A stretch of DNA of 63,908 nucleotides, filler included, from Folioceros fuciformis (Eukaryota), in assembly GCA_049999805.1 (NCBI GenBank). It is 7 parts of 5 records of this genome, joined end to end, with 100 filler letters (N's around TTAATTAATTAA, not from the genome) between each part and the next. Parts side by side here need not be neighbours in the genome. Positions count along the whole stretch, not along the records: positions 45,838 to 53,754 come from JBNGIO010005935.1; 6 more parts are not named here. The stretch is one strand, 5' to 3'. Below, in pieces: positions 8,838 to 62,468 of this stretch (position 1 is the stretch's first letter; every line of letters starts with the position of its first letter). The notes under the pieces are model-generated. The model saw only the letters and a program-made list of their open reading frames with translations. It was not told where the DNA came from and searched no databases. The position numbers and the translations under genes are program-made.

Positions 8838-9074
8838 TGTCAAGGAGGTTGGAAGAGCTATATCTGGCCGTGTATTCTGTACTAGGTGCTGAAGGCTGTC
8901 AAGGAGGTTGGAAGAGCTATATCTGGCCGTGTGTTCTGTACTAGGTGCTGAAGGTTGTCAGGCAGGTTGGAATAGCTATATCTGGCCGTGTATTCTGTAC
9001 TAGGTGCTGAAGGCTGTCAAGGAGGTTGGAAGAGCTATATCTGGCCGTGTATTCTATACTAGGTGCTCAAGGCT
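8838..9074. repeat. 59-bp tandem repeat x4 inside copia RT
   Basis: TGTCAAGGAGGTTGGAAGAGCTATATCTGGCCGTGTATTCTGTACTAGGTGCTGAAGGC starts at 8838, 8897, 8956 and 9015. Confidence 0.9.
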
Positions 9075-18570: not shown

Positions 18571-18711
18571 ACACCTCACAACCTAACCTGAGTATCGGGA
18601 TCACTTGACGGACGCTGAGGTGTTTCACACTGTACAGATGCAGATCGATAAGTGCTAGCAAACGAACTTGTTGGACGCTCCTTTGTAAACCCAGAGGATG
18701 CCGAGTCAGAA

Positions 18712-18811
18712 NNNNNNNNNNNNNNNNNNNNNNNNNNNNNNNNNNNNNNNNNNNNTTAATTAATTAANNNNNNNNNNNNNNNNNNNNNNNNNNNNNNNNN
18801 NNNNNNNNNNN
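18712..18811. other. Scaffolding linker N-TTAATTAATTAA-N (also 31874-31973, 45738-45837, 53755-53854, 60776-60875, 62369-62468)
   Basis: Identical 100-bp cassettes with a central sequence that puts a stop in all six frames; artificial. Confidence 0.95.
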
Positions 18812-26928: not shown

Positions 26929-29900
26929 ATGAAGCCCCGGACTGATGTGCAGCTGGTGGTGGAGCACAAGAAGAACGGCACGGTCGTGGGCACCACGTCT
27001 GTCGTGGTGGATCGAGATTCTCCAGACGTATTGTCGGAGCTGCAGTGGAGGTTGATTCAGAGCATGCCAGACCTGGTGCCGCACGATCTTCGCACGCTGG
27101 TGGGGGTTGACGAGAGTTCCGTGAAGGTGGAGTACAAAGACCGGAGTGGACGGCACTCAGTTATCACCAGCAGTGTTGAGCTCCAACAGGCGATTGGAGA
27201 GCTTGTCGTCCTCGGACACGCTCCCAAGCTCTGGGCCTCTTATCAGCCTCCGGCGGATGCAGATCCGAATACGTGGAGGCGAGTCGCGTATGGCAGGGAC
27301 TCGGGAACCGGTGCTGAGAATGACGGTCGATGGCAACACCTGGAAAGAGCGGACAGTGCTGCGGGCGGCCGGGGGAGTTAACAGAAGCCGCGCAGGATCG
27401 GCGGGTTTACGTCTCGATCTGGAAGCTCCCACTCTACGGGAGCAACGCCGGGGCACTCTCGGCAGCTTCAGTCAGAAGCGCAAAGGTTGCTCGGTCGGCG
27501 ATCGAGCGATGCTTCTGTGGTAAATCATGAACCAGGTGGGATGCTTGTTTTTGCAACCTCGCATTACGTTTGGTCCAATCGGTTGAAAAAACTCCAGAAT
27601 GCCGTATCTTGAATCTGCTTGTTGGCCTGTTCAAACACGGTGAAGGGCTGACGAAGGCCAGTGATGCGTCGACCCTTTCAGCGACCCAGCTCTGCTACTG
27701 GCTTGATGCCAAACTCCACCTCTCTCCAGCAAGGAACATTCAGGAGCTGGGCTCGGAACAAAGTCCTGACTTCAAGGTTCTGGCCAATCTGCTGGAAAGG
27801 ACGAATTTTCTGGCGTCCGCCATACGAAAGACGGCGGAGCTACTGTCCCGGGATGAAATCCGAAGCTCCTTGATGCGCCACAAGACTGACAAAGTATATG
27901 GGCTCCTTCCGGGTTCGCCCTTCATGATGCAGCTTCAGTGGCACGTCCAAAGCATGTACAATCCCAAGGCAAGCGACTTGGATCCACATATCAAGCTTGT
28001 GGAGGAGATTCTGACTCGAACAGAAGATGGGTGGAAGGTAGTGCCACTTGATGCTATCAAGCGGGTGATTGATGAGACTCTTGGGGATGTTAACTGCAAG
28101 TCTTCAGACAGAAACTCGTATGACGCTCTGTTATCAGATGTGAATCGATTGCTTCAAATAAGAGACCCGTCAAAGCGGACGAGAGCTTCCCAAAGATCTG
28201 GCGATGAATGTTGTCCGGTGAGCAGTTGTCTCGATCACATCACCTGTTCGAGTACTTTCGCAGGCTGACAAACATTCAATGCTGAGGTCAATGTGTGATG
28301 TTTATGCAGGAAGAAGAATATCGCCACCTTCCTATCCTGCCCACCATGTTCCGAAATGGTGGTCGCAGGCATTCTACAACAGCCGCTTCCCGTTAATAAA
28401 GTTGGCCGGCCGTACTCAACTGTCTTCGAGTACCTGGACACAAATTTCAAGCTGTTACGTCAAGATTATATTGAGCCTCTTGGAGAAAAAATCAACGAAT
28501 GCCGGAACCGAAATGTGAATCAGCCTAGTGCTGACATGAGATCCTCCAGGGCGTTACCATGATGAGGAGGGGATATATGTTAATGTTCGCTTTCATCCCG
28601 GCTTCAAATTTGGCAGAGAATCCATCGAGTATGAGGTACACCAGTCAGTGATTTTCGTTTGTGCACATGTGCTGGAGTTGCCAACTCGTCGCTCACCGAT
28701 ACTCACTGGGTATTCCGAAACTTGTCATTTGCCAGGTACACTTCAAAGATGTTGGCGGATTCACTTCGTGGGAAACATCCAAACGGTTTATGGTTGGTTC
28801 TTTATTATGCTTCTCAGAGGATAACTTCGCCACACATTTCTGGGGGCTAGTGGCTAGTCGTGAGGTGAGGGGCCTTGCAAGGGGTGTCCTCATGATCCGC
28901 ATTCTACCTAGCCCAGAAGCTTCAGAGAGCTTGGAACGTACTGAAAGAACAACAGAGCAGGCACGCTTCCCCTGGTTTGAACCAGGAAAGCGCTTTGTCA
29001 TGGTAGAATCGCCTGCGTTCTTTGAATCATACTCGCACGTTCTGAAGAGCCTACAGACCGAGGACATGTGCCGCCAGCTCCCTTTCGCCAAGCATCTGGT
29101 CGACTTGGAGGGAAGGGTTGGTCCACCCACCTATTTAGCGAGAAGGCCACAGAAAGGAGTGTATAATTTCAGCAACGTGTTTCCTCAGATGGCGAGAGGC
29201 AGAGATGCCTTTGACGTACTGGGAACCTGGCCAGACTGGGACCTGGGTACTCTGCCAGAAAGAGGCTCTCAAGCATGCACTTACTAAGGAGCTCGCGCTG
29301 ATTCAAGGACCTCCCGGAACAGGAAAGACGTATGTTGGCCTGTTGCTACTCAGGATGCTGCTAGCAAACTTAAAGCAGCAAGAGTGTGGGCCCTCTTGGA
29401 GGGGTGCAGCTGACAACAGGCGTAGTCTTCAAAACGTATCGGGGCCGATTCTGGTGGTTTGCTACACAAATCACGCGCTGGACCAGTTTCTCGAAGGCAT
29501 TTATGAGCACGAAAAAAGTTTGATTCGCCTAGGAGGGCAAAGTAAGAACGACGAACTGAAGGTTAGAAGCCTGACGTATCTTGTTCGGGAGCAGAAAGAA
29601 AAACGAGCTTTGGATCATGACCTGCGTCAAGCCTTCAGAGAGGCAATGGATGTAGCTCAGCGACAGAAGGGAGAGATCGAAGAAAAATATTTGCCCTTCC
29701 TAAGCTTGGTAAGCCTGAGTCAGCGGCATTTGGTACCACATGCAGTTAATGCTTTCCTGTTTACCTGAATAGAGGCCGACGATCCTGTTGACCATGGTGT
29801 CTTACTGGTCTCTTATTGCAGACGCTCGTAAACAAACATGCTCTACATGAAATTGCAACTCCACAAGAGATAGATTCTCTGTTCCTCTGGAGGAGCCAGA

Positions 29901-31873
29901 CAGTTCAATTGGCAGAGGATCATAAGCTTTCTGACGATGAAGCAGTGCAGATCTGGCTTTCTGGAGCCGATGAAAGGGCCTGTCGCAAAAACACGGGTAC
30001 TTTAACAGTACTCAGGACAAATCAAGGCCGGGCTTCGTTTCCACGAATCCATTCGACGTCTTCGGAACTTTCACCGTTGATGAAGATGAAGAACACGCTC
30101 TGCAGAAATACGATCGATACGATGAATTTTCAATAGCGTCTACGGACGACGATCCTTATGACTTTGAAGATGGAGAGACTGCAGGTCAGCTTGACTACTG
30201 GGTTGCTCAGTACCTACGTACCATTCTTATCTACTCTGGTGAAATGCCTTTAAGACTTTCTTTCTTGCAGACTCCAGTGTCGAAGACGATGCAGCTCCTG
30301 TACAGCAGCTGCAACTGTTAGACATGAACAGAACAGATGAGGGGCCAGGAAACAGGAATACAGAAGAGTTCTCAAGTCCAGAAGACAGTGGACCAATAAC
30401 ACCTGACGACGACTTTATCAATGTAGGTGATGTACGGAAGTTGCCTCGGTCTTTGAGACTGAGGCTGCACCAGTGTTGGCTGATGGCCATCAAGAGGAAA
30501 GCCGAGCACGAAATTACGAGATTATCCGCCGAGTATGAAGAGGCCTGCAAAGCCAGACTACAAGTGGAAAAAGAGGGGCATCTACGCCTGCTTAGACAAG
30601 CGAAGGTCGTGGGTATGACTACCACGGCAGCTGCCCGAATGCGTGATACTTTGGCCTCCCTGAAGCCAGAGATTGTGATAGTGGAAGAAGCAGCCGAGGT
30701 TCTGGAAAGCCACATTCTGGCTTGTTTCAGTCGTCACACCAAGCATCTCATCCTCATCGGGGATCATAAGCAGCTGCGGCCTGCAGTATCTGTTCACAGG
30801 TTGGCCGTGGACCACAAACTGGATGTCTCCCTCTTTGAGGGACTGGTTGCCAGTGGTGTGGAATACAAGTCTCTGGAGGTTCAAAGGAGAATGAGACCAA
30901 CCATATCATCCCTCCTAACGCCAATCTATCCGTACCTCACAGACGATCCTTCGGTCAGCACTTTCCCCGATGTGCGTGGTATGAAACATAATGTGTACTT
31001 TGTAGATCACCAGGAGGAGGAGAGCTCCGTCAGGGACTCAGACAATGGGTCTAAGGTGAACAAGGAGGAGGCAAAACTGATCGTGGAACTTTGCACCTAC
31101 CTTTTGAAGCAGGACTGCTATTGCGCGAAGGACATCACAATTTTAAGCATGTACACCGGCCAGGTAAACAGCTCACAGATGATGTACAGTTTGTATCAAA
31201 GGAGACTGAGCGCACACAATCCTTTCGGTGCAGTAAGTTGCGTGTGCCTGACAAACTCGTTTGATGTTCAGGTGGAAGAAATCAGGAGTCTCCTGAATGT
31301 GCGCGTGGGAGGTAGATGCCGGCCAAGGGCGATTGCAGCCGGGCATCCTAACCAGCAGGGTGATTTACCCAGAGTCACAAGCGTTGATGGTTTCCAGGGA
31401 GAGGAGAGCAAGATCGTTCTCCTGTCTTTGGTGTGGAATAACAAGCATGATAGGACTGGTGGAATAGGGTTCCTCGACATACACAACAGGGTCTGTGTTG
31501 CCCTTTCCAGGGCAAAACATGGAATGTATATCTTCGGAAATGCAGATCTTCTTGCTGCGTGGAGTGAAATTCGGGGCACAATCACCGGAAACCTCCGACA
31601 TTCCGGCCTGCTGGGCGCACAGCTGATCCTGTGTTGTCAGAATCATCCTGAGAGAGAGACCAGAGTGACACGAGCTGTTGATTTCACACAAGTTGAGGAT
31701 GGGGGTTGTGGTCAGCCGTGCGAGTTCCAGTTACAATGTGGCCATGTTTGCCCTCGACGGTGCCACCCTGGTAGCAATCATGAGCAAGCCGTCTGCTGTG
31801 AAAGCTGCTCAAAGCAGCATGAAACCTGTGAGCATACTTGTTCAAGGATATGCCACCATGGATCTAGCTGCCC
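26929..31873 (+). pseudogene. ZNFX1: ZNFX1-like UPF1/SF1 RNA helicase with NF-X1 zinc fingers and a putative N-terminal PB1 domain; frameshifted and truncated by a linker gap
   Basis: ZNFX1-type blocks YRHLPILPT, YLDTNFKLLRQDYIEPL, WETSKRFMVGSLLCFSEDNF and FFESYSHVLKSLQ; Walker A QGPPGTGKT; YTNHALDQFL; VEEAAE; IGDHKQLRP; QRRMRP; VDGFQGEE; VALSRAK; CGHVCPRRCH and CEHTCSRICH. Introns at about 28218-28308, 28636-28735, 29709-29821, 30185-30270 and 31163-31271. Frameshifts near 27370, 28345, 28550, 29255 and 30000. Confidence 0.85.
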
Positions 31874-32973
31874 NNNNNNNNNNNNNNNNNNNNNNNNNNN
31901 NNNNNNNNNNNNNNNNNTTAATTAATTAANNNNNNNNNNNNNNNNNNNNNNNNNNNNNNNNNNNNNNNNNNNNGGAGAATAAAGGAGAGTGCTTGGACAG
32001 GTTGGGGTATTATGGGTAGAAGGGAGAGCCTTGCAAACTAGGAGCAATTTCGCATGTAAATGTTATAGCCATGAAGTGTAGTGTGCATTTATGTGGTGAC
32101 AAAACCCCGGGCACCTAACTGCCAAGGAGGGGGCTTGTGCTGTCTCTAGTGTCCAAGCTTATTCCATTGTGATTAAAACATTCAATTTGGGTTTCGTTCC
32201 CACGAAGGACAATGGAATTTCTCTTTCTATCTAGAGGTTGGATGGAGGGTTTACTTGTCTTACTACCTCGACTCCTAACCAAATCCTAGCATGTCCTGGC
32301 CCCTATATCACAGTCATGCTACGGACAGATAGTTGGGTCAACTTCCCTGCCAACCCATAGACAACTTCACCCACTAATGCTGCATTAGATGCTTCTTATA
32401 GTCAGTTCTCACATCAACAACCTAGGATAGTCCACTAGATCTCAAGAAGACCCGGACATACCTCCTAAACACTTGTACAACTCACACACTAATATGATGG
32501 ATTTGAGGGCTCTCCTCTAGGTCTGGTCTGGCATATGACAAACTTAATAAAATCTATACTACGGATCATACAACACAAGTGCGGAGGCATGGAATGGAAA
32601 ATTGAGCATGTAGGGAAGACAAGATGCTAGAGATCATCAACATAAAAGAGAATGTATTAAGGAGGGCAGAGCATTGTGCTATATACCCAAAAAAACGTAA
32701 ATGATTATTAAATCGTCATAACTAAAATGTGAAACTAACTCTTTAACCTAGGTTAGAGGTCTTAACTGCAGTCTAGGTTTTCTATACTCTCACTTAGTTT
32801 ATTATTTTAGGAGTACGAAACGGGCATTAAACTGAATGCATGTTCTTGTGAGAGTCATCATCAGTCTAAGAACTCTTGCCAAACGTGAAGACTGTGTCAC
32901 GCTTGTCAATCAGTGTCCAACAACTCTTTACGCTCCATTGTCTTGCTCCCCACGGATCACCATAAAAGCAACA

Positions 32974-43800: not shown

Positions 43801-44327
43801 TTGGACAGCCAGTAGGCCTAACAGCCGAGTAGGCAGCTGCCCAGGGGAAAGACAGGGGATGTAGACAGGTAATGCCCAAGGATGACAGCCTGACACTGAA
43901 ACACTGGTTGTAGACTACTGCCAGGCAATTTTAGGGCGTGGACTGCCCCACCCAAGCATCGAAGGCAAGGGTAGTACACCCCCTGTACCATGGCAGCCAA
44001 TGGCCGTAATTAGCATACGGCTTGCCATCCGCGGTTAGTGGGTTGGAACTGACTCGCTACCACAGGCAGAGGGCCGGATGCTAAATGCGGCGATGATGGA
44101 TGGTGTGTGCCATGTCAGGACGCGACGACCTAGGGCTATCCGCTCAAGGGCATCAGTCCAGCAGACCAGTCCAGCAGCTTGGAGGGTGGTCCGCTAAGAA
44201 CATAAGTGACACTTAGCTTTCCATCCATGAGTCGCAACTCTGGTTGCTTGTAGGCCGAAGGCCTAGCCTAGGGCCAAGAGTCTTGGCCAGCCGTGGCCAG
44301 CAGGATGGAGGGAAGGACCTGAAGCAG

Positions 44328-44620
44328 GTTAGGTGTGGGTTAGACTTAGGTTAGGTCTAGGCTAGGTTTAGGTCAGACCTAGGGCAGGATAAGTTAGGTC
44401 TGGGTTAGACTTAGGTTAGGTCTAGGTTAGGTTTAGGTCAGACCTAGATCAGATTAGGTTAGGTTTAGGTCAGACCTAGGTTAGGTCTGGTTTAGACTTA
44501 GGTTAGGTCTAGGTTAGATATGGGTTAGGTTTAGGTCAAATCCAGGTTAGGTCAGACCTAGATTATGTTAGGTTAGGTCATACCTAGGTCAGGTTGAGGT
44601 CAGAACTTGGTTAGGTCAGA
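44328..44620 (+). repeat. Degenerate (TTAGG)n-like pentamer array
   Basis: Mixed TTAGG, CTAGG, TTAGA and TCAGA units. Confidence 0.85.
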
Positions 44621-45101
44621 GAGAGGAGGTGGGGTAATTGATTCAGGTTAACCCTAGTAGACAGAGATAGAGGGGAGGCAGTATAAGAGGGGAGATATGC
44701 CATTGAGAGGGGAGCTGTCTACGGTGCGATTTCCCTGGACCTTGTGTGCAGAACTCCTGGCTTAGGGCGCTGACCCGGTTGAGACTAAACCAAGGTCCTG
44801 ATTTCCCTTGCCACTAGGGGAACGTGGAGGATCCCAAGACTGCCAAGATCCGTGTGGCCGGATCCACAAGGGCTAAATGATTCACAGGCTGGCTGAAGTG
44901 AAGGGACAAGACCGTGAGCCAGGAGGGCTATCCAGTCCTAGTATCCACACCACACCTGAAGGCTGCAAGGAATGAAGTCATTGTGTCCCAATTTCCAGGA
45001 ATAGCTGAAGCAAAGAGAGGAAGAGTTCGAGTGAAGTGCATAAAAGTGAAGAGTGAGCTGCTGAGGTTCAGTTGTGTGTGCTGAAGTGAAGGGTGAAGTA
45101 C

Positions 45102-45389
45102 TGAAGTGAGGGAGGAAGGATTGAAGTGGGAAGCATGAGGAGCTGACGTGAGGAAGGAAAGACTGAAGTGGGAAGCATGAGGAGCTGAAGTGAGGAAGGA
45201 AGGACTGAAGTGGGAAGCATGAGGAGCTGAAGTGAGGAAGGAAGGACTGAAGTGGGAAGCATGAGGAGCTAAAGTAAGGAAGGAAGGACTGAAGTGGGAA
45301 GCATGAGGAGCTAAAGTAAGGAAGGAAGGACTGAAGTGGGAAGCATGAGGAGCTCAAGTGAGGAAGGAAGGACTGGAGTGGGAAGCATG
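45102..45389 (+). repeat. 42-bp purine-rich minisatellite, about 7 copies
   Basis: Units of TGAAGTGAGGAAGGAAGGACTGAAGTGGGAAGCATGAGGAGC. Confidence 0.9.
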
Positions 45390-45737
45390 TATTGAGTTAT
45401 CGAGCTCTATATGAGCTAAACTCATGTGGTGTTAGTTATCCCAGTTGGGTTCATACTAGACTAGTTCTAGTTATTAGTGAACTTAGGATAGTGTAGATTA
45501 TCCCATATTGAACCTGGAAGTTGTGTAGCCCTAAATGTACTACTTAAATGGAGACCTCGGACCTCCATAGTAAGACAGTGGTGATGTGTATTGTTTTCAT
45601 GGTTGTGATCACCAATACCACCCTCTCTTCTCTCCTCTCCTCTCCTACACTTGCACGTAGACTGGAGTCGATCCTATTGACATGGTGTCAGAGCCCGGTG
45701 CAGGCGGTGCAAGATCGGCGTAGGAGGTGCTGCAAGA
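45390..45737 (+). mobile_element. 5' LTR (45390-45682) and PBS of copia family F
   Basis: Near-identical to the reverse complement of solo LTR 51415-51707; followed by TGGTGTCAGAGC (tRNA-Met PBS). Confidence 0.9.
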
Positions 45738-46082
45738 NNNNNNNNNNNNNNNNNNNNNNNNNNNNNNNNNNNNNNNNNNNNTTAATTAATTAANNNNNNN
45801 NNNNNNNNNNNNNNNNNNNNNNNNNNNNNNNNNNNNNATCGCGTTGCGGCGCTCCGGATTGTGGATGGAGCATAAAGCGGGAGAGGGGAGAAGGCGGTTT
45901 CTCCCCATTCGCCTCCCCGTCCATTAATTGCGGGGGGTGGGCGCGGCTCGGCAAACGGGCGTGCGCCCACAATGGGCGTCCGCGATGGGGCCGTTCGGGC
46001 CAACCGGCCCGTACCCGCTCCCGCGACGGTACCGACTATATACAAAAAAAAAAAGGAAAAAGAAAGATATACTAACATGTTG

Positions 46083-46146
46083 AGCCTACCTGGATTCGAA
46101 CCCACAACCTCCAACCCCTGTATGAATGGATTGACTACTACACCAA
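46083..46146 (-). other. tRNA-derived degenerate element (Pol III A/B boxes)
   Basis: Minus strand reads TTGGTGTAGTAG ... GGAGGTTGTGGGTTCGAATCC. No complete cloverleaf. Confidence 0.5.
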
Positions 46147-46249
46147 TGCATTTTGGTTGTAAATAGGTGGGTCTCGCCTGTACTAAACTTTGTATGAGCA
46201 GAAGTACAAAGGCATTAGACTTCACCCCTATATTCATAGCGAGTGGGAG

Positions 46250-46508
46250 TGATGAAATGGGTCTAGATTAGGGCACTATTCATTTGGGCCTCGTAACTTT
46301 AAACATTATTATCTACCTAGGGTTTATTTAGGTAGTTAGTGGTTATATTAGTTATATTAGTTGTAACCGCTTACGGTTGCAACTACTTCGGTTGCAACAA
46401 CTTATGGTTGCAACCGCCCAACCACCTAGCCTATTTAAAGGCTTGTACTTTACTCATTAATTGATTCCGTTGTTTTCTTTCCTATCTGAGAGCTATTGAA
46501 TCTCATCA
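46250..46508 (+). mobile_element. LTR (TGATGA...TCATCA) preceded by a PPT-like tract
   Basis: Inverted termini, TATA-like CTATTTAAAGG and upstream GAGTGGGAG. It supplies the stop codon of the methyltransferase ORF. Confidence 0.65.
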
Positions 46509-48458
46509 GAAGTTGGGGTCCTCTGAAGTTTGAGGCAGCAGAGTGCAATTCTCATCCCAGACAGTGATGGTGTAAAGGTCTTTCGTAGGCCTATCATCAA
46601 TATGGTGTATGACCTCTCCTTTCTTGCCCAACATACTGAACACCATCAGTTTGCGGTCCACGCTCCCATCACCGCACACTTCCTTTGCCCAAAATTTTGA
46701 TGGGCCTTGCGTAAACAACTCGGTAGTAATCTCCTCATTTGGGTCAGGTATGATATATGATGTGCACCTGACATCCACATCGATCGCAACTGCATGCCTT
46801 CCATGCTGAACTACACTTTGGAGGAGAGATCCAGAGCTTGCGCATGCATCAACCACCCAGTCCCCCTCACACGAAAACATGTTAATCGGCATACGCATCA
46901 ACCCTAATGGTTTTTGGTAAGGGGAGACGGCATGCGCATCTCCTAAATGAAACAGGTGCTTCTTCACCACCGCTCCGTGCCTTATAACCCTTGGGAGCAA
47001 AAATCCATGATTCGTAAACAGTGCAGCCTTCGATTCTTGAGCCTTTGTGTGAACTGCACTCCCAACAGTGACATACTCAATTGTTTCCACTGCTCCTGCG
47101 TTTGGGGGTATGTTCGTCTTCTCCCATACCAGTGTTTGGATGCTCCCCTTCTTGCACCATGGCTGCAGTGCCTCCTTGCTTCCAAAATCATGTCTACTCC
47201 GTGCATTAGAATAACCCTAAAAATATTGCTTGAGGTGCATTCACTGAACTCGGAGCATTTCATCCAAATCTGCCACCTTCATCTGCCTGTCATACTCATG
47301 CCGTTGTAAGCCTCGAGGCAGGTCTGCAAATAGCAACGTGTAGGGTCGTTTGACAAGGAATGCCTTCATTTCTAGTACATTCCTTTGAATAACCTGGTAT
47401 TTTACCTTTGAGTTACTCGCCGGAACCCAAAAATCCGACAGCCCTGCATTCATATCCACTGCCGCCAACTTCTTTTTCTCCTCTTCCATCCTTTTCCAGT
47501 TTTTCGCCGAATAAACAAAATCCTGGAATGGCTTTGGGAGGGACTCCAAGTCCGCTATCTCTGAGGGTTTCTGCAACCAGAATGGTAAACTTTGGTCTGG
47601 CTACCGATAAAGCTACTTTAGCATGAACATACATGAGTGCGCCGGTAGACCAGCGCACTTGAGACCGCTGGAGCTCTAGGGCGCCGGTAGACTGGCGCAT
47701 TAGACTCCAATGGAAGCTCCAGTGCGCCGTTAGACCGGAGCACTGAACTCAATGCAGGCCCCAGTGCGCCGGTAGACCGGCGCATCTACCGGCGCACTCT
47801 TGCCTCCAAGCTGCTCCAGTGCGCCGGTCTACCAGCGCACTGGGGCCGGCTCGGGGCCAAGTGCTGGCCTCCTGCTGCTGTCTTCGGTAACATGGGTAAC
47901 AGAACTTTGCAGGGCAGAATCTCTTGTCTTCCTTTTCGCCTTTGCCCTCTTTGGTGTCCCGGCTGTTACCATGCTCTTCTGCTCTAGGAGCTCACCTTGT
48001 TCCCACATTCTAAAGATCCTATCCACATTGTCCCACAGAACACCTGTGCATCTGGCTACCCGATATGGCAAGGTCTGCCTGTCCACCATCTTCTGCACCT
48101 AGTCTGTGTCGTGGGGATCTCCACCTTCGTCAGTCAGCCCTAGCAACCTGTACAGGTTGAACTTCCACTTGACTGGTGGCTTCTCTTTTCCTGAATGTTT
48201 CCTGAAGAAAATGTCAAGCTCGTCATGGATGTATCTGACCTGCTCAATAAACCCCATCCACTTCCGCTGGTCTGCATAGACATTGTGTTTGACAGCGAGA
48301 ACCCTCATCTCTCCCTCTGTCAACCCAACATACACATGCCCTTCCATCCATTCATACTTATCTTCTACGAGGAACATCTGATGTAGTTTCTGCATGGCTG
48401 CAAAGCAGTGGTTGCCCCCTAAGACTCCCATGTGGTACTGCTGTGCCGTGATCCTGTA
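46509..48458 (-). pseudogene. ParB-like domain + beta-class N4-cytosine/N6-adenine DNA methyltransferase, degraded
   Basis: VLGGNH (ParB/Srx-like), then LLFADLPRG (motif IV, DPPY-like), IQTLVWEK, IEY, PYQKPLGL and SCEGDWVVDACASSGS..GRHAVAID (motif X-I, AdoMet binding), in beta-class order. One stop, about 2 frameshifts and a probable intron at about 47830-47571. Both ends are cut by LTRs. Confidence 0.8.
47636..47842. repeat. Array of 5-6 palindromic AGTGCGCCGGT-AG-ACCGGCGCACT units at about 42-bp spacing
   Basis: Units near 47637, 47681, 47721, 47763 and 47818; each can form a hairpin. Confidence 0.85.
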
Positions 48459-51400
48459 GTTGGAAGACTACATGCGGAAGCGTGTCTTCAAGCAAAGAAT
48501 ATGATTAAGATTTAATATAAAAGTACAATAGTTGTGCTTTTATAGGCATCACCCTAAAGGGTGTGATCTTTCACTAGCCTAGCTAATTAACCTTACACAT
48601 AGTGTGCTGAGCTAACATGACTTAGGGTTACATAACTCTAGTGAACTGCTACCCCTTCTAACTCTCCCTCTCAGTCACGTTGAGGTTATGAGAGCTGTAT
48701 CAGAGATTAGTGCTTGGAAAGTTTGTAACAAAAAGCTATCTACTCCAGCTCGACTGTCAAGTCTTCCAATCGCTAAGACTGTCAAGAAGTCTGTTGCTCG
48801 CGACAACCTCTACAGTAGCACACCAGTCATGACCAGAACAGAAGTAATATTCCAGTTACAGTTGTCCTTGCACTTGATGGAGCTAGAAAGAATATCTTTA
48901 CCACGTCTTCAAATTTTCTTGAGTGACATAACCACTACAGTCTACAAGACCAAGTCCTTCCCTATGAAAACAGTGTTTAAACTTAGGAAGTGACTTAGTC
49001 AGAACATCAGCTACATTAAGATCTGTAGGCACATACTATATCTTTACTAAGCCCCTCTCAGCAGCATCCCGAACATAATGATATTGGATCTCGATGTGCT
49101 TAGTGCGGGCATGGAACACAGAATTAGCCACCATAGCAATGGCTGACATATTATCACAGTTGAGGATGGTGGGACCCTTTTGGAGTATTCCCAAATCCTC
49201 GCATAACTTCCTTTCCCACTCAGCCTCCTTTGTTGCTTCTGTCAAAGCTTTGTACTCTGACTCAGTAGAAGATAGAGAAATAGAGGATTGTTTCCTGCAG
49301 GACCAATTTATCACTGTGGAACCAGCAAGAAAACAATATGCTGAGAGACTTTTGCGAGTATCAGCATCAGAAGCCCAATCAGCTTCTACGTAACAATTGA
49401 GCTGTAGATGCTTCTTCCCGCTAGGTTTGTAGCAGAGACCAAAATTAGGAGTACCCTTAAGGTATTGCATTATTCTTTTAACTGCAACCCAGTGGTCTCT
49501 TCCTGGATTCTCAGAGAATTGTGCAACTGCATTCACAGTGTTAGATATATCTGGTCTGGTCCAGTTGCTTAGGAACATGAGAGTGCCTACTGCCATTCGA
49601 TATGGCACACTCTCCATCTCCTTCTTATCCTCTTCAGACTGCGGACAGGATGAGGAGGAAAGCTTAATACCAACGGCACCTGGAGTAGCAGCGGCTCGTG
49701 CATTTTCCAAGCTAAACTTCTTCAACATTCCTGCTACGTATCTTCCCTGATGAAGATAGATAGCTCCTGTAGACCTATCTTTATGAACATGCATTCCTAG
49801 AATATACTTTACTTGACCAAGGTCTTTCATCTCAAACTCTTTACTGAGATCTACCTTGATCTGATTAACCAGCTCGACATTGTTTCCAGGAATGACCAAG
49901 TCATCCACATATAATGCTATTAAAACAAGTGAACTGTCTTTTCGCAGTATATAGAGATTGGTATTTGCTTCACTTTGCACAAAACCAATCTGCTTGAGGT
50001 ATGTATCAATTCGCTTGTACCACATGCGTGGGCTTTGTTTAAGCCCATATATGGAACGTAGAAGTTTACACACCTTATGAGGATATTTCTTGTCCTCATA
50101 GTCCTCAGGCTGATCCATATAAATTTCTTCTTCTAAATGACCATACAGAAAGGCTGTGCAAATATCTAGTTAATAGATGGTAAGGTTAAGTTCAGAGCAC
50201 ATGGCCAGAAGCATCCTTATAGACGCTGCTTTGACAACAGGTGAGTAAACCTGGTCACCCTGATAGTCTACTCCCTCTCGCTGACTATAACCCTTGGCCA
50301 CTAACCGGGCTTTGTATCTTATCCGGGGCTCTACCTCTTGAAACTTGGTTTTTAGTACCCACTTACACTTGACTGTAGTCCTGCCTGCAGGAAGATCTAC
50401 TAATTGCCAAGTGTTATTTTTGACTAGAGAGTTGTACTCATCGTCAATAGCTAATTTCCACTTATCAGCATCCGGTCTAGAGTATGCTTCTCGGAGTGTG
50501 AGAGGATCTCCCTCTGAATGAGCAGAGCTTACAGCAAGAGAATACACAATGGGATAAACACCAATATACCCAGCTTGATTAAATTCTAGATCAAAGGGTT
50601 TTTCACCCCACAAATGTCTTGGCTGTCTTTGACNNNNNNNNNNNNNNNNNNNNNNNNNNNNNNNNNNNNNNNNNNNNNNNNNNNNNNNNNNNNNNNNNNN
50701 NNNNNNNNNNNNNNNNNNNNNNNNNNNNNNNNNGAAGAAGTGAAGTCAAAGGAAACATGGAGATCGTTCAAAGGACGAGGACTACTGGTGAGAGAACTGT
50801 CATCCTCGTCACTGTCCAAAACAGGGCCATGAGACAGCACAGAGCCTTCATCAAAGGTCACCGTACGAGCATAGACCGGATTATGAGAGTGAACATCAAC
50901 TAACTTATAAGCCTTGCGGTCCTCCCCATAGCCGACAAAAACAAGTTTCCGTGCTCGAGATGAAAGTTTGTCGCGTAATGGGGATGGGACATAGGCATAA
51001 GCTGGAGAGCCAAAAACCCGAAGGTGAGATATAAGAGGCTTGTAGCGAAACCAGCATTCAAAAGGAGTACGACCAGCAACGGCCTTCGTAAGCAGCCGAT
51101 TCTTAATATAAGAAGCTGTGGAAATAGCCTCAGCCCAAAAAGACTTCGGCAGACCAGACTGTGCGAGCATGGCTCTAGCCATGGTCATAAGATCACCATT
51201 GGCCTTCTCCGCAACGCCATTCTGAGGAGAAGTGTAGGGTACAGTAAACTATCGAGTAATCCCACGTTCTTCACAGAATGCTTGGAAGAGCCAATTGTTG
51301 AGTTCCCCAGCATTGTCTGAACGAATGCACCGCAGCTTGCACCCTGCGTGCAACTCGGCCATCGAGACAAAGGGCTGGAACACAGCAAAGGAGTTACTCT

Positions 51401-53754
51401 TGAGACGGAGCGGATGTCAATAGGATCGACTCCAGTCTACGTGCAAGTGTAGGAGAGGAGAGGAGAGAAGAGAGGGTGGTATTGGTGATCACAACCATGA
51501 AAACAATACACATCACCACTGTCTTACTATGGAGGTCCGAGGTCTCCATTTAAGTAGTACATTTAGGGCTACACAACTTCCAGGTTCAATATGGGATAAT
51601 CTACACTATCCTAAGTTCACTAATAACTAGAACTAGTCTAGTATGAACCCAACTGGGATAACTAACACCACATGAGTTTAGCTCATATAGAGCTCGATAA
51701 CTCAACAGCGGATACACAAAAGTATAACGAGAATAATCATCAACAATTGTCATAAAATGGCGAGCTCCGCCTAAAGAAGTAACAGGAAGAGGTCCACACA
51801 GATCCACGTGAACTAGTTCCAAGGGCTGAGAAGCCCTGTGAGCAGGAAGACTAGAGTAAGGTGCACTCCGCTACTTGGCCAACACACAGGCTTCACAAAA
51901 TGAGGGAGGCTTGGCTGAGGCCGGAAGCTTGTCACGGTAAAGATCCTGCATGGACATGGCAAGGAGCTTGGCAGAGTTAAGATGCCCAAGCCTGCAATGC
52001 CATAAGAAGGCTTGCCCGGAGGACGATTCCCTCGTAGAAGACGCATCCTTGGTTGAATCCACCATAGAAGCACTGGGGGAATACACAAGGGTACCAGAAA
52101 ATATGTAGAGATTGCTCTGTAGACAGCCTTTAGCAACCACCTGTTGTGGCTTAGAGGAGCGATAGAGTAGACAAGTCGCTTTGTCAAACTCTAGTTTGTA
52201 AAGACCATCGTGCAAAAGATGACGAATGGAGATAAGGTTCTTAGCCATTTGTGGAACATGTAGTACATTCTTTAGCATAAGGATAGAGTTATTTTCTAAC
52301 TTGAAAGTCACAGTCCCTATGCCATGGATGGCAAGACCGGAATCATCTCCTAGGAGCACGTACCGTGGAGGATCAGTAGACACCTCATAGGTAGTAAACA
52401 TATGCTTGGAACTGCAAATGTGAGTAGTAGCCGCAGAGTCAAGGAGCCACGATGTCTTGAGTGCCGAGGCAACAAGGCACATAGTAAGAGCAATCTCCGA
52501 TTTAGACTGATGCTTGGCCTTAGGAGCTACTACCGTATTGGCAGACTTGGGCTCCCTCTTAGCCTCACCAGCTTGCTTCTTCCTGCACTCCCTCTCCCAA
52601 TGACCCGGAATTTGGCACCAATTACAAGTACCTTGGCGCTTCTAGGTCTTGGAGGTAGAGGCAAAAGAAGTGGATTTGGGATAACTACTAGAAGGCATCC
52701 TTCTATTAGTATTGTCTCTTTTCTTAGGCTGTTGTTGAGACCGCCCTCGGGTGACAAACATCACGCGTTCACCACCATGCTTAGATGTGCCAGAATTGTA
52801 GCGAGAAGCCTCCTCTTGCAAGAGCGCTCCAGCAATCTCAGACTCGTAAGAGTGGATTGACCACCAGTCGTCACTGCTCGCTGAGAGTTACGGACCGACT
52901 GATTGTTTGAAGAGACAAAGGATTGATAGCTAGCCGGAAGACTAGCCAACAATTGTACAGCAGCATCAAACTCAGACATAGTAGTGCCTAGTGCAGCCAA
53001 TTGTGCCCGGAGGTAACAAAATCGACTCACATGGTGAGCAATACTATCGCCTGGTTGCATACGGAGAGTATAAAGGGTCGCACAATGACGAGGGTCATCA
53101 CATTGGTGGACTAATAAATGTCATTTATTTGATTCCAAGCTTCTGCTTCTGTAATTGCACCATCAGTATGGTGTAACGTAGTCTCGTCAAGGCCAGATAT
53201 TAACATATGCATGGCTTGACGATCAAGTTTTAACCAAGCTTTGGCAGCCGACTAGGGTGCCAAAGGCTTGGGTGAAGATCCTTCCACTAGTGGAAGAAGA
53301 TCACACGTATTCAACGCCGCCTTCATCCGACGAGACCAAACTTCATACCTGGTCCCATTGAACCTATCTTTTTCTTTGAAGTCGGTGGAAACGTTCATAA
53401 CATTGATCACCGGTGCCATAGATGGAGGGATTGGGGTCATTGGATTACTTGTCCCTGACATTCTTGTGGTTTAATCTTCAACAGAGAGTTAGGCAAGTAT
53501 TGCGTTATAACACAAGGCTTAGAATGACACCAAACTAGAAGATAGTGTCAAGGAAAGTATTGTTTAGAAATGTCACTTCAACCACCTATGGATCACTATC
53601 CGGTAACTACAGCAAGTGAGAGCTCTCTGGAGTTGTTTCCCGATCGAGGCTTGATTCAAGTTTGCGTACAATTTCCACGTCATGCACCAAATTGGAGATG
53701 GACTCCCAAAGCTTAAGATAGTGTTGAGAGCGCTGGTCCAGGGTGGAAGTTTGA
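48459..53754 (-). mobile_element. Degenerate copia element G
   Basis: 3' LTR at about 48459-48662 with PPT; RT/RH 49036-50613 (YVDD); INT; protease (DSAAT); gag from 53461. The 5' end is lost at a linker, and there is an internal 100-N gap at 50634-50733. Confidence 0.88.
51415..51707 (-). mobile_element. Solo LTR of family F
   Basis: TG...CA, 293 bp, perfect TSD GCGGA; interrupts the integrase of element G. Confidence 0.95.
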
Positions 53755-53854
53755 NNNNNNNNNNNNNNNNNNNNNNNNNNNNNNNNNNNNNNNNNNNNTT
53801 AATTAATTAANNNNNNNNNNNNNNNNNNNNNNNNNNNNNNNNNNNNNNNNNNNN

Positions 53855-58713: not shown

Positions 58714-60418
58714 ATGCAGCCCAAGCTGCCGCACAAGCATACTACTCTAACAAAGCAACAAAAGAAAGAGGTTTGCGAATATTATGTCCAACACTCTTAC
58801 ACACTTAAGGAGTTGACTAGATGGACAAAAGAGAAGTTTTCATTAGCAGCTTCTAAAAGTGCATTGTCTAGGATTGTGAATGACAAAGACAAATGGTTGG
58901 ACCTTGCCAATGGTCCAGCAACTAATATGGCAAGAATAAGGGATAGACCAGTCGTATGCTCACAGGTTGACCACGTAGTACACGTTTGGGCTTTTGCAAT
59001 CCAAGCACAAGGTCCCACAATTTCAGATGACTTGCTTCGTGAGGTGGCTTCCAAATTCCACGAGAGGATTTCTGAAGATGAGAAACTAAAAATAACATAC
59101 CATAGAGGTTAGGTTGCTCGCTAGAAGAAAATGTATAATTTGAAATCAGTTGTCAAACATGGAGAGGTAGGGAGTGTTGACAATACAGAAGCAGTGAAGA
59201 TAGCTATTAGAGAGCTGCAACTTCAAGTTCTTGATTATGGAGTTGCAAATGTTTTTAATATGGATGAGACTGGTCTTTTCTTCAGAGCACCGCCGAACAT
59301 GACACTTGCAACAATGCGTGCTGCAGGACGGAAGCAGTTTAAGGACCGGTTGACAATTGGACTGACAACAAATGTTGATGGATCTTGCAAGTTGCCACCT
59401 TTTGTGATTAACAAGTATCTTAGGCCTTGTGCTTTTTCCGTTAGGAATGTTCAAAATCCTGAGAATTTGAATATTATCTGGTCTACAAACCAAAAGGCCT
59501 GGATAACAATAGAGCTGTTTGAGAAGTTTTTGCTAGATTTTGACCAAAGGATGGTTGTATCAGGGTGGACTAGAGTGTTACTTATGGTGGATAATTGTCC
59601 TGGGCATCGGTTTGGTAATGCAGCTCAATTGCAAGTTACAAAGGTGGTTTTCTTTCCACCCAATGTGACAAGCGTATATCAACCTTTGGACCAGGGGATC
59701 ATCCGTTCTTTCTGGGCTCATATCGCAAGTTGATGATTTTGTACCAATGCAACCAAATCATAGACAATGCGGCTACAATTATTGATGTATATCAAGTAGT
59801 GGTTATGCTGGTAAAAGCTTGGACTTCATTTGTGAGTCCTCATACATACGCAATTGTTGGAGGCATAGCACTTTGGATGCGGAATTGCGTGCACAAGATG
59901 CTCTGTTCCGTGAGTCTTTGGATCTAAATAGCGCATCATATGATCCAGAGGGTTCATTGTTGGATCCTCAAAATCACTCTAATTCGTTGGAAACACAAGT
60001 AGAAGAGTTACAACAGTCCATGCGAAGCTTAGCATTATTAACATCTAAGGATATGACAGGAATTGTTGATGTTGGATATCCAATGATGACAGCTGAAGAG
60101 TATTTGAACTTTGAAGAGAATGAAGGATTGGAGTACTTATATTCCTAATATGGCAAGCATTAATCCCTCCGCCTGCCAATAAGAAGGGTGAGGAAAATGA
60201 TACAACGTTAGTGGAGACCATAGCGCCAAGATCACGTACGACAAATGTTGTAGATAATGCTATGAGGATAGCGAAGATGTTTTTGGAAGAGATGCCATAT
60301 AACACTCTTCATGCTTTGAATTTGCATTCTCAATTGGAAAAACATATTTGCTAGTCATTGAATGAAAGCAACTCATCATCAATTAAGGGTTGATGATTAT
60401 TTTACCCCGGCAAACTAG
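58714..60418 (+). mobile_element. pogo/Tigger-like (CENP-B HTH + DDE_1) transposase, degraded
   Basis: N-terminal HTHs, FNMDETGLFF, LMVDNCPGH, QPLDQGIIRSF and C-terminal QLRVDDYF, with stops and frameshifts. ATCGAGATT repeats upstream (58425-58515). TIRs not identified. Confidence 0.85.
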
Positions 60419-60875
60419 AATTAAGTTGGCAGATATGTAATATGAGGGAGCATTTTGGATTTTTTTGGAAGCTTTTAAGCTCTTTCAAATTTTTGATTTA
60501 GGGTCGTACACATATTTAACACCTGCAACGGGTCCAACATCTAGCCTGTAGGGCCATTACTCGTGCGTTTTGAACTACCTCCACTGATGCCCTGGAATTT
60601 AAAGCTTTTCTTCTGCCCACGGAGTTGCGCCTCCAACGCCATTCTCTCCTGCCCCTCCCTCTCACCTCATCCATCAAGTCTTTCTTCCTACGACTAACTA
60701 CAAAAAATGCTACCACAATGCTATCCGCAGTCGCCTCACACTCCTTTCCCCTAGTACTCTGTACTCCGCTTTAGGNNNNNNNNNNNNNNNNNNNNNNNNN
60801 NNNNNNNNNNNNNNNNNNNTTAATTAATTAANNNNNNNNNNNNNNNNNNNNNNNNNNNNNNNNNNNNNNNNNNNN

Positions 60876-62368: not shown

Positions 62369-62468
62369 NNNNNNNNNNNNNNNNNNNNNNNNNNNNNNNN
62401 NNNNNNNNNNNNTTAATTAATTAANNNNNNNNNNNNNNNNNNNNNNNNNNNNNNNNNNNNNNNNNNNN

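Follow-up and report, generated by a model that had tools for sequence, protein, structure and literature searches.

Introduction

To our knowledge, amino-methylation of eukaryotic DNA (6mA, 4mC) is contested and very few of its enzymes are known. Two PF01555-type cases have been accepted, N4CMT of bdelloid rotifers and DN4MT1 of Marchantia, each of which was presented as an isolated acquisition. Both are horizontally acquired N4-cytosine methyltransferases, described as permuted amino-methyltransferases of bacterial type residing in eukaryotic genomes, and N4CMT, according to its authors, is without eukaryotic homologues. In phages, genes for ParB-like nucleases and methyltransferases adjoin terminase genes, and phage or plasmid fusions of ParB_N with N6_N4_Mtase run from an N-terminal DNA-handling domain to a beta-class methyltransferase. 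For eukaryotes, PMC4738411 (Iyer, Zhang, Aravind) traces a haptophyte N6A-methyltransferase clade (clade 6) to phage ParB-terminase loci, and describes a chlorophyte or chytrid Dam that is fused to a ParB-type HTH.

Here we describe a locus on the minus strand at 46509-48457 of the window, by which we mean the whole 63,908-nt stretch of Folioceros fuciformis DNA that was analysed. This locus is very probably a dead copy of a repeated gene of a eukaryotic family, the intact product of which would consist of an N-terminal 'GGNH' domain, a K/R-rich linker with a small helical middle domain, and a C-terminal beta-class N6_N4 amino-DNA-methyltransferase. Judged by similarity, the relic belongs to a seemingly undescribed methyltransferase family with members in a stonewort (Chara), a liverwort (Riccia), a fern (Adiantum), Ginkgo and a sea cucumber, within which it falls into a clade bearing DLPRG instead of D-P-P-Y. 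Its 5' part was lost to a Ty1/copia insertion and its middle domain is deleted, with palindromic repeats in its place. No description of the family was found in the literature searched, which covered few of the subscription journals, and no land-plant paper appeared among the listed titles that mention N6_N4_Mtase.

The family shares the domain order of the phage and plasmid fusions, but differs from them in several respects. Its N-domain lies outside ParB models and does not have the arginine of G-x-x-R; a K/R linker is present, as is a middle domain that the fusions do not have; motif IV reads D-x-P-[Y/H/R]-G and is accompanied by a YQKP motif, compared to HPTQKP in the fusions; and the hosts are eukaryotes, in which the genes possess introns and display ~25% identity to phage methyltransferases. 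DN4MT1 and N4CMT are likewise set apart by their descriptions, as far as these are accessible. Motif IV of DN4MT1 is TSPPY, whereas the family has Asp at that position, N4CMT carries a C-terminal chromodomain, while Pfam scans of the relic and its relatives found none, and the GGNH N-domain is not part of the accessible description of either enzyme. The clades of PMC4738411, according to its available text, resemble the family in being methyltransferases from phage ParB-associated loci that occur in eukaryotes, some of them expanded in one lineage. In contrast to the family, clade 6 carries a fused FHA-fold domain and is confined to haptophytes, while the ParB-HTH fusion falls in the M.EcoKI/M.TaqI-like group rather than to the permuted N6_N4 type; streptophyte members of the GGNH-methyltransferase architecture go unmentioned in that text.

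Extent of the relic and order of its motifs

A preliminary description of this locus, made from the sequence alone, had listed a series of minus-strand motifs in which catalytic motif IV preceded AdoMet motif I. Each of these motifs, as well as their order, was recovered on the minus strand of 46509-48457, and the Pfam and phmmer matches discussed below confirmed that the observation is real and far beyond chance. The features of the region are as follows.

46238..46508, minus strand: 3' flank repeated along with the ORF, with 15-16-nt direct repeats at 46370-46414 (TRF)
46506-46508, minus strand: stop codon of the relic ORF
46509..47216, minus strand: piece D, methyltransferase core (IQTLVWEK, IEY, SPYQKPLGL), motif I CASSGS, GRHAVAIDVD and the family C-terminal tail (HMM E 1e-31)
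47170..47254, minus strand: frame-shifted stretch, reading FSECTSSNIFRVILMHGVDMILEARR in the other frame, with a small deletion on either side (near 47248 and near 47173)
47244..47600, minus strand: piece C, methyltransferase N-terminal arm and motif IV DLPRG (HMM E 2e-12)
47601..47865, no strand assigned: palindromic GTGCGCCGGTCTACCGGCGCAC-type repeats in place of the middle domain, with a 42-nt tandem at 47639-47784
47832..48098, minus strand: piece B, a helical segment (LWDNVDRIFRMWEQGELLEQ) and, after it, the K/R-rich linker (E 1e-12 at positions 250-314 of the subfamily HMM)
48099..48101, minus strand: in-frame stop TAG (X123 of the read-through), TGG (Trp) in other copies of the genome
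48102..48457, minus strand: piece A, N-terminal 'GGNH' domain core (YHMGVLGGNH..VYVGLTEGEMRVLAVKHN..), first half absent (subfamily HMM positions 133-234, E 3e-26)
48458..49035, minus strand: end of a Ty1/copia element, with the last pol residues at 48898-49035 and then a probable 3' LTR down to 48458

VLGGNH was read on the minus strand of 46506-48467 in piece A (translated from 48467 down to 48102), the best relatives of which, P0004, P0060 and P0015, are 39-40% identical. The K/R-rich stretch TPKRAKAKRKTRD is encoded by piece B (minus strand, 48098-47832). ADLPRG lies in piece C, with the DLPRG codons at 47324-47310 of the minus strand, while IQTLVWEK, IEY, YQKPLGL and GDWVVDACASSGS..GRHAVAID are all in piece D (47216-46509, minus strand). 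Motif IV precedes motif I in the read-through protein, DLPRG lying at residue 382 and residues 540-547 forming the motif I region, and the same permuted order was observed in every relative that possesses both motifs.

Lesions of this copy and the Ty1/copia junction

The nominal frame of the relic contains 9 internal stops. At the TAG listed above, the reads displayed 48100 T>C across their full depth (107.7/107.7 in X1 and 211.7/211.7 in X2). Frames were assigned using a subfamily HMM, which placed 47600-47244 (HMM 18-109) in frame 2, 47278-46985 (HMM 121-149, E 0.002) in frame 0 and 47216-46509 (HMM 148-296) again in frame 2. In the reads, about half of the depth (other copies) had 'CC' inserted behind 47248, and a minority of it had 'C' inserted behind 47173 (9/246 in X1 and 31.9/268.8 in X2); most copies in the genome appear to share one frameshift, with the extra base carried by 1-2 contigs. 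The pieces seem to be in one frame because the two frameshifts cancel, and a reading in which all pieces lie in one frame without frameshifts was ruled out by the subfamily HMM frames together with the reads.

Motif I of the relic is CASSGS (46841-46827) compared to CSGSGS in the relatives, and the relic has no intact G-x-G. The substitution 46838 T>C (Ser544 to Gly) accounted for 172/192 (X1) and 270/282 (X2) of the read depth, most other copies having Gly. The middle domain of ~105 residues (WRGFQGI..LKV..GELTLKEM in the relatives) is absent, HMM positions 315-420 having no counterpart in any frame, and read depth over the palindromic repeats at 47601-47865 was 15-77, compared to 100-350 in their flanks. 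The stops, the two frameshifts and the G-to-S change in the AdoMet loop therefore preclude a protein from this copy. Thus, the copy is dead, as had been proposed on the basis of a stop, frameshifts and the change of GSG to SSG.

Upstream of the relic, RVT_2, SH3_retrovirus, Pol_BBD and gag_pre-integrs domains were found on 49036-52641. At 48457/48458 the reads exhibited loose ends on both sides, and the end of the locus as given in the preliminary description, 48458, coincides with this read-seen repeat junction. On the relic side, the reads show other copies running on in frame upstream past 48457; on the right-hand (LTR) side, other copies then read TGGTATTAGAGCTC, which we take to resemble a tRNA-Met primer-binding site. 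Insertion of the Ty1/copia element is thereby shown to have cut off the 5' part of the relic at 48457/48458. One could instead regard the methyltransferase ORF as cargo of the adjacent copia, an additional ORF lying downstream of pol and on its strand. The relic does begin ~440 nt past the end of copia pol on that strand, and PMC12344493 offers a precedent in DNMT3-type C5-methyltransferases inside Copia/DIRS elements of streptophytes. However, 5 contigs in X2 extend the ORF upstream in frame and carry unrelated sequence instead of the LTR, copies on the LTR side run into other sequence (including the primer-binding-site-like TGGTATTAGAGC), the cut falls inside the N-domain (subfamily HMM positions 1-132 are absent), and the relatives elsewhere are multi-exon genes with no RT adjoining, making the cargo reading very improbable. 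At the other end, read depth was 180-510 down to about 46221 and then 0-17, and ARAGORN detected no tRNA gene in the SINE-like left flank. The relic of the repeated gene is, then, cut at both ends by other repeats.

The methyltransferase half and its motif IV

Piece D matched Pfam N6_N4_Mtase (PF01555) with an E of 4.5e-7 and 30.5 bits, above the cut-off of 26.7, and relatives scored up to 65.7 bits against the same model. DNA-methyltransferase families of PHROGs matched as well. In NCBIfam, two adenine methyltransferases, CcrM and YhdJ, were matched in part and far under their cut-offs. The one structural hint was a weak sequence alignment of PDB 2zie over residues 515-566 (E 0.4). The PF01555 score above cut-off, the PHROGs matches and the permuted order uphold the earlier assignment of the locus to a beta-class N6_N4 amino-methyltransferase.

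The canonical form of motif IV, (D/S/N)-P-P-(Y/F/W), was not found in the relic or its clade, which have D-L-P-R; elsewhere in the family the motif is D-[I/F/A/V/P]-P-[Y/H], with DPPY only in P0041 and P0098. Although DLPR had initially been counted among the lesions, DLPRG is common to four diverged relatives (P0002, P0003, P0009 and P0018, all Logan contigs and 35-54% identical to one another), and is therefore a clade trait rather than damage. In the tree, piece D grouped with three DLPRG rows (SH-aLRT 95) within a 16-row eukaryotic group (SH-aLRT 94), and the sampled prokaryotic and phage neighbours were HTH- and ParB_N-fused methyltransferases.

Wherever motif IV is present in the family, it begins with Asp. 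Because its first residue is Asp, the motif weakly favors N6 of adenine over N4 of cytosine as the predicted target of the family. The aromatic residue of motif IV stacks on the flipped base. Since the DLPRG clade retains the AdoMet pocket but not this aromatic residue, it is probably catalytically weak or inactive, and its members are candidate binding or regulatory paralogues. METTL14 has a degenerate motif IV, which DLPRG parallels. The pairing of an active methyltransferase with an inactive paralogue in METTL3-METTL14 may thus be a useful comparison for the DLPRG clade, which likewise combines the fold and AdoMet-site residues with an odd motif IV; METTL3-METTL14 is nevertheless a different methyltransferase family, and the likeness would be one of pure analogy.

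The N-terminal GGNH domain

The N-terminal part of the locus had been described as ParB-like. No ParB model matched it in Pfam, PHROGs, NCBIfam or PDB sequences, and ParB_N of Pfam in particular matched neither the relic pieces nor 34 relatives. Other Pfam matches of the N-domain were weak and each confined to 1 of 18 members (DUF6551, E 0.019; PF08775, E 0.16), while PDB profile searches with the N-domain alignments yielded one irrelevant MarR match (E 0.12) and otherwise nothing. Aligned by hhalign with 9 phage ParB-like nuclease N-domains, the N-domain scored 24.8 with an E of 0.0045 and a weak Prob of 7.7%, compared to 99.6% for a ParB-versus-ParB control. This score exceeded that of the reversed control (12.3) and those of 30/30 column shuffles (maximum 16.2), and the alignment was in register, with GGNHS on G-H-x-R and VYAGLT.EE..LA.HN on the matching ParB helix. 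Against 31 ParB_N sequences (30 chromosomal ones and L054), hhalign gave a Prob of 0.07 and an E of 0.7. In place of the ParB G-x-x-R, the arginine of which is absent, the family has G-G-[N/G/T/C]-H-[S/G/T] with a nearly invariant His. Thus, no model bears out the ParB-like label, for which there is a weak profile-profile signal with phage ParB-like nucleases, and the GGNH domain may at best be a remote ParB/Srx-like domain.

As an example of the phage and plasmid fusions, L054 carries an ORF in which Pfam ParB_N (E 8e-9) is combined with N6_N4_Mtase, and this ORF can be aligned with the family along the entire methyltransferase domain. A scan of genome contigs with this ParB-methyltransferase returned 3 Prevotella chromosomal ParB loci only.

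A eukaryotic family

A phmmer search that set the read-through protein against 1.84 billion representatives yielded 58 matches at E<=1e-3, the best with an E of 6.4e-25. A word-indexed homologue search with the same protein found no match at 359-1145 aa, and the family emerged in the exhaustive search. Among the 30 clusters examined of these 58 matches, an organism could be assigned for 13: Adiantum (5), Riccia (4), Chara (2), Ginkgo (1) and Holothuria (1). Ginkgo has 5 gene models. In Riccia, 20 further gene models carry the N-domain, bringing the total to at least 24 dispersed models with pairwise identities of 25 to 98%. The two parts that had been described as one fused gene do co-occur in single ORFs elsewhere. 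Both motifs were in one protein in 8/58 phmmer matches (P0005, P0006, P0010, P0012, P0028, P0030, P0041 and P0055), the N-domain and methyltransferase also share a single ORF in P0069, P0070 and P0098, and P0060 and P0062 bridge both halves in the DLPRG clade. Metagenome loci of the family displayed split ORFs, which we read as introns, and one family gene is interrupted by a plant-type LINE. Phage records matched the methyltransferase half only, at ~25% identity. The description of the gene as prokaryote-type must accordingly be abandoned: the relatives that could be detected, whether for the whole protein or for the N-domain, are eukaryotic, and phage matches are confined to the methyltransferase half.

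These findings also bear on the possibility that the locus represents bacterial or phage contamination, or a chimeric contig. The window consists of short unplaced contigs joined by N44-TTAATTAATTAA-N44 linkers, the methyltransferase is of a type typical of prokaryotes, and none of the read contigs listed bridges 48457/48458. We nevertheless consider this explanation exceedingly improbable, as the best-matching relatives come from eukaryotes and prokaryotic proteins match no further than the methyltransferase core, the copia and the SINE-like repeat flank the relic on the same contig, and the organism's own DNA runs contain a 171-nt contig identical to 48230-48400 together with hundreds of diverged copies.

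The named hosts (Chara, a liverwort, a fern, Ginkgo and a sea cucumber) shed gametes into water. Entry of the family via integrated eukaryotic DNA viruses (polinton-like viruses, virophages or giant viruses), with the copies representing decayed endogenous viral genes, would suit such scattered host lineages, in which gametes are released into water. It would also be in keeping with the HTH- and ParB_N-fused methyltransferases that are the sampled prokaryotic and phage neighbours in the tree, and with the abundance of N6_N4_Mtase in marine polinton-like viruses, where it ranks among the ten most abundant domains. However, when the family alignment was run against 2.9 million IMG/VR contigs, it recovered 4 loci, each with the C-terminal AdoMet motif only, no phage record matches the N-domain, and family members have introns. 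Viral entry is therefore quite improbable in our estimation.

Copy number and possible roles

In three DNA runs of one Folioceros fuciformis sample, 518, 594 and 247 contigs matched 45900-49100 with identities of 90-100%, and as many as 19 distinct contigs covered a single position. Many dispersed copies per genome were thus observed both here, as read contigs, and in Riccia, as models on several chromosome-size contigs; the family is multi-copy in several host genomes. Element ends, a target-site duplication and a transposase, integrase or RT belonging to the unit were sought around the relic, which other repeats truncate, and none was seen, nor was a second copy or another part of the element present within the window. 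In this genome, the sequence may have spread as a passenger of some repeat.

The copies might instead be pseudogenes of an ordinary host gene family, produced as segmental or retro-copies with no mobile element or virus involved. The relatives do resemble normal multi-exon genes, the relic is without introns across regions that are split in the relatives, and no transposase, TIR or LTR of the unit's own was observed. Yet the copies are repeat-like in that they form hundreds of short contigs, 90-100% identical, and that as many as 19 variants cover one position. The Riccia models are dispersed and range widely in identity, and no poly-A tail follows the 3' flank. Taken together, we regard an origin of the copies as host pseudogenes as rather unlikely, and favor the view that the locus is a dead copy of a repeated gene.

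In intact members of the family, the N-domain and middle domain may serve to bring the enzyme to DNA, where the methyltransferase would move a methyl group onto the exocyclic amino group of a base. A more far-reaching proposal is that a single-origin, selfish or virus-derived family of GGNH-domain, wHTH-like and beta-class adenine-type methyltransferase architecture, patchy among eukaryotes, has split into competent D-x-P-Y-G and DLPRG pseudoenzyme lineages that jointly mark repeats or gamete chromatin with 6mA (or 4mC); in this complete form the proposal is unlikely to hold. The locus in the window is without function of its own, and what makes it valuable is that it points to the family. Because the N-domain is conserved from a stonewort, a liverwort and a fern to Ginkgo and an animal, and many copies are present per genome, the family may provide a further set of candidate amino-methyl writers, or of pseudoenzymes derived from such writers.

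The preliminary description had also raised the possibility of intact paralogs. Consistent with a multi-copy family in which other copies carry less damage, three of the lesions of the relic are absent elsewhere among the hundreds of read contigs: other copies lack the stop at 48100 and the Ser at 46838, and approximately half of them lack the 2-nt deletion at 47248.

A methyltransferase relic

Translation of 46506-48467 on the minus strand, with stops ignored, yielded four collinear pieces, A-D:

48467-48102, minus strand, piece A, containing ..YHMGVLGGNHCFAAMQKL..VYVGLTEGEMRVLAVKHN..
48098-47832, minus strand, piece B, a helical segment and then TPKRAKAKRKTRD
47600-47244, minus strand, piece C, containing ..LPKPFQDF..YTLLFADLPRGL..
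47216-46509, minus strand, piece D, containing ..IQTLVWEK..IEY..SPYQKPLGL..GDWVVDACASSGS..GRHAVAIDVD..
46506-46508, minus strand, stop codon of piece D

All of the motifs quoted in the preliminary description were recovered, in the order that it gave. Piece D matched Pfam N6_N4_Mtase with 30.5 bits (E 4.5e-7; curated cut-off 26.7 bits), DNA-methyltransferase families of PHROGs also matched the relic, and PDB chain 2zie, a putative modification methylase, aligned over the stretch from YQKP to motif I (E 0.4). When 1.84 billion representatives were searched exhaustively with phmmer, 58 proteins matched at E<=1e-3, of which 12 reached <=1e-10 (best 6.4e-25). Taken together, these results indicate that the match is not due to chance, and they bear out the methyltransferase identity proposed for the relic.

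Matches to a closest-subfamily profile switched between frames: positions 18-109 fell in frame 2 (47600-47244), positions 121-149 in frame 0 (47278-46985, E 0.002) and positions 148-296 again in frame 2 (47216-46509). Read contigs (short contigs from Folioceros DNA sequencing runs) carried an extra 'CC' behind 47248 at roughly half the depth, and an extra 'C' behind 47173 at only a minority of it (9/246 in run X1, 31.9/268.8 in run X2). The frame switch and the extra bases together indicate two small deletions that cancel one another in the relic. A reading of pieces A-D in one frame, free of frameshifts, is thereby ruled out, and the frameshifts reported earlier stand. The stop at 48099-48101 was TGG in all read depth of other copies. 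The AdoMet loop reads CASSGS in the relic versus CSGSGS in the family, and its Ser544 was Gly in 172/192 of the depth in X1 and 270/282 in X2. With a stop, frameshifts and a G-to-S substitution in the AdoMet loop all found, the copy is dead, as had been claimed.

Against the profile of the N-terminal 'GGNH' domain (N-domain) and the middle domain (~105 residues between the K/R linker and the methyltransferase), piece A matched positions 133-234, piece B 250-314 and piece C 421-518. Positions 1-132 are absent because the copy stops at 48457. Positions 315-420, in the middle domain, had no counterpart in any frame of the relic, and repeats stand in their place:

47601-47865, palindromic GTGCGCCGGTCTACCGGCGCAC-type repeats

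At 47639-47784 this gap is occupied by palindromic, GC-rich 42-nt units in tandem (3.4 copies, 77% matches), where read depth was far below that of the flanks, indicating that most copies lack the tandem. The locus is an ordinary pseudogene within a nest of repeats.

Copies in the organism

Between 30 and 36% of sampled words of 45900-49100 were present in two DNA runs of one sample, and at a threshold of at least 90% likeness this interval was covered by 518, 594 and 247 short contigs in three runs of the same sample. Those of X1 divided into 94 at or above 99%, 160 at 95-99% and 264 at 90-95%, and up to 19 distinct contigs lay over one position. One 171-nt read contig was identical to 48230-48400. 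That the relic is contamination is very unlikely given this identical contig and the hundreds of diverged copies in the organism's own runs, which mark it as native; the relic represents a single copy of a repeat of this organism that is old and has diverged. The deletion near 47173 was seemingly common to most genome copies, as judged from few contigs, which suggests that copies spread as passengers with the ORF already broken.

Family members and architecture

Name look-ups covered 30 of the 58 phmmer matches, and 13 clusters had a named organism (the others came from Logan, ENA and JGI): Adiantum nelumboides (5), Riccia sorocarpa (4), Chara braunii (2), Ginkgo biloba (1) and the sea cucumber Holothuria leucospilota (1). 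We know of no flowering plant among the organisms of these 13 clusters. Further searches gave five Ginkgo models and 20 additional Riccia models with the N-domain, the latter spread over several chromosome-size contigs; pairwise identity among the Riccia proteins is 25-98%, with a median of 67%.

The preliminary description staked its reading on the two halves co-occurring elsewhere, and they do: N-domain and methyltransferase lie in a single protein in P0005, P0006, P0010, P0012, P0028, P0030, P0041 and P0055, and likewise in P0069, P0070 and P0098. Within the relic's clade, both P0060 and P0062 link the two halves across the middle domain: P0060 reaches from VLGGNH into the methyltransferase arm, and P0062 from the N-domain's end past DLPRG. 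Full-length relatives were also present on metagenome contigs (L005-L028), where G+C is 30-33% and the ORFs are split, the splits being read as introns; these contigs are short, and no transposase or reverse transcriptase of the gene's own was seen on them.

Several members had features of their own. The single gene model of the Chara braunii protein P0006 (1825 aa) contains the N-domain plus methyltransferase module twice, complete both times, with long low-complexity stretches of Ala/Pro and of Glu/Asp between the two; either annotation has fused a tandem pair, or the duplication is real. In the 14.5-kb metagenome contig L011, the family gene (1416-8957) is split by a plant-type LINE with DUF4283, Exo_endo_phos_2, RVT_1, zf-RVT and RNase H. 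P0098 (599 aa) has a canonical DPPYG and a weak C-terminal C1-type zinc-finger match (Pfam C1_1, E 8e-5, under cut-off). P0088, an N-domain relative from Riccia sorocarpa (301 aa), bears the UniRef name 'GIY-YIG homing endonuclease' and had no Pfam domain at E<=0.01.

Relationship of the N-domain to ParB

The N-domain had been described as ParB-like, a claim that direct searches did not uphold: no ParB model matched it in Pfam, PHROGs, NCBIfam or PDB sequences, and no phage record matched it. Comparison by hhalign with 31 ParB_N sequences (30 chromosomal plus the ParB_N-fused locus L054) gave Prob 0.07. Against nine phage ParB-like nuclease N-domains, the score was 24.8 (E 0.0045, Prob 7.7%); the reversed control scored 12.3, 30 column shuffles reached at most 16.2, and a ParB-versus-ParB control gave Prob 99.6%. 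The phage alignment was in register, placing V..L...M...P..lVDP on l..SI...G..Pi.v, VLGGNHS..AR on i.aGh.Rl.aa, and VYAGLT.EE..LA.HN on a helix ending in N. The ParB arginine is absent from the family, with a nearly invariant His in its place. On these alignments, a remote relationship to ParB is plausible, and we lean slightly towards it.

A clade with a non-canonical motif IV

Motif IV of the family reads D-[I/L/F/A/V/P]-P-[Y/H/R]-G and is followed by YQKP and then D-x-C/F-S/A-G-S/T-G. The DLPR of the relic had been counted among its lesions, but DLPRG is common to the relic, P0002, P0003, P0009 and P0018; since the DLPRG relatives are only 35-54% identical to P0002, the motif is a conserved clade trait and not decay. 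A quick IQ-TREE run on 58 rows, fragments excluded, took in 15 family proteins, the second Chara module, piece D, 35 prokaryotic/viral ORFs from gathered loci (the prokaryotic rows being a sample biased by the locus search pattern) and 6 short matches. Piece D grouped with three DLPRG rows (SH-aLRT 95) inside a 16-row eukaryotic group (SH-aLRT 94), which neighboured HTH_23-fused methyltransferases (SH-aLRT 90) and, without clear resolution, the ParB_N-fused L054; the sea-cucumber row lay outside the eukaryotic group on a very long branch, its placement unsure. The original observation is confirmed, and its interpretation is supported in part.

As to the working of intact members, we infer that the N-domain and middle domain would hold DNA and that the C-terminal domain would methylate an exocyclic amino group. 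In D/N-P-P-Y/F/W enzymes, the aromatic residue of motif IV stacks on the flipped base. The DLPRG clade lacks this residue, with motif I and YQKP conserved, so its proteins would be expected to be weak or inactive enzymes kept for binding, by analogy with the inactive partner METTL14. N6-adenine is weakly favoured over N4-cytosine as the target, since Asp stands first in motif IV and NCBIfam gave partial matches to CcrM and YhdJ, far under their cut-offs; the preference is weak because this methyltransferase domain changed specificity repeatedly, according to the authors of the rotifer N4CMT paper.

Related work describes Marchantia DN4MT1a/b, whose motif is TSPPY and which group with N4 enzymes of prokaryotes (preprint); rotifer N4CMT, with a chromodomain and 'no eukaryotic homologs'; a haptophyte clade 6 derived from ParB-terminase loci, and, in chlorophytes and chytrids, a fusion of ParB-HTH with Dam (Iyer et al., PMC4738411); DNMT3 carried inside Copia and DIRS elements (2025 MBE paper, PMC12344493); and N6_N4_Mtase among the commonest domains of polinton-like viruses (preprint). 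The ParB-HTH-Dam fusion belongs to another methyltransferase group than the relic's family. The family's architecture in streptophytes was not found described in the literature searched. The relic points to a multi-copy family of eukaryotic amino-methyltransferases whose N-domain is novel and conserved, and also to a conserved clade with a non-canonical catalytic motif.

Genomic neighbourhood

The window consists of short contigs chained by N44-TTAATTAATTAA-N44 linkers, so neighbouring features on different contigs are without physical linkage:

18712-18811, 31874-31973, 45738-45837, 53755-53854, 60776-60875 and 62369-62468, linkers
1323-1422 and 50634-50733, N100 gaps

The relic's contig (45838-53754), which contains the second of these gaps, carries upstream, on the same strand, a Ty1/copia pol (RVT_2, SH3_retrovirus, Pol_BBD and gag_pre-integrs on 49036-52641) whose last residues end at 48898. 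Read contigs showed a sharp junction at 48457/48458. Five X2 contigs extend the methyltransferase ORF in frame upstream of this junction, with 97% mutual agreement, and right-hand-side contigs run on into different sequence starting TGGTATTAGAGCTC, which we take to resemble the tRNA-Met primer-binding site of LTR retrotransposons. No listed read contig spans 48457/48458. We read 48458 to c.48890 as a probable copia 3' LTR inserted into the relic; this reading rules out the methyltransferase as cargo of the adjacent copia.

On the 3' side, read depth was high to ~46221 and dropped where tRNA-like SINE sequence starts. This SINE-like sequence (c.46040-46237, minus strand), with a tRNA B-box (GGGTTCGAATCC) and a T-rich stretch, adjoins the relic's 3' flank and was matched by one read contig with 12 differences; ARAGORN found no tRNA in it. 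Direct repeats of 15-16 nt (CTTACGGTTGCAACAA, 2.9 copies) at 46370-46414, ~100 nt past the relic's stop and within the co-repeated 3' flank, could be sub-terminal repeats of a putative carrier element.

A 292-nt perfect inverted duplicate (45392-45683, at the end of the previous contig, versus 51414-51705, inside the copia element) reflects either redundant assembly or a second copia copy of identical sequence. On the neighbouring contig are two arrays, at 44306-44620 and 45046-45431, one satellite-like with an 11-nt unit (GGTTAGGTCTA type) and the other a tandem of a 42-nt unit in 7 copies. An uninterrupted 1449-aa Ty1/copia polyprotein ORF at 14233-18582 (minus strand), with gag, a protease-like barrel, integrase, SH3 and RT, belongs to an element that may have been recently active. 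The remaining large ORFs of the window are mostly copia fragments, and 28652-31925 (plus strand) and 59125-59733 hold ZNFX1/AAA_11/AAA_12 helicase gene fragments and a DDE_1 (pogo-type) transposase fragment.
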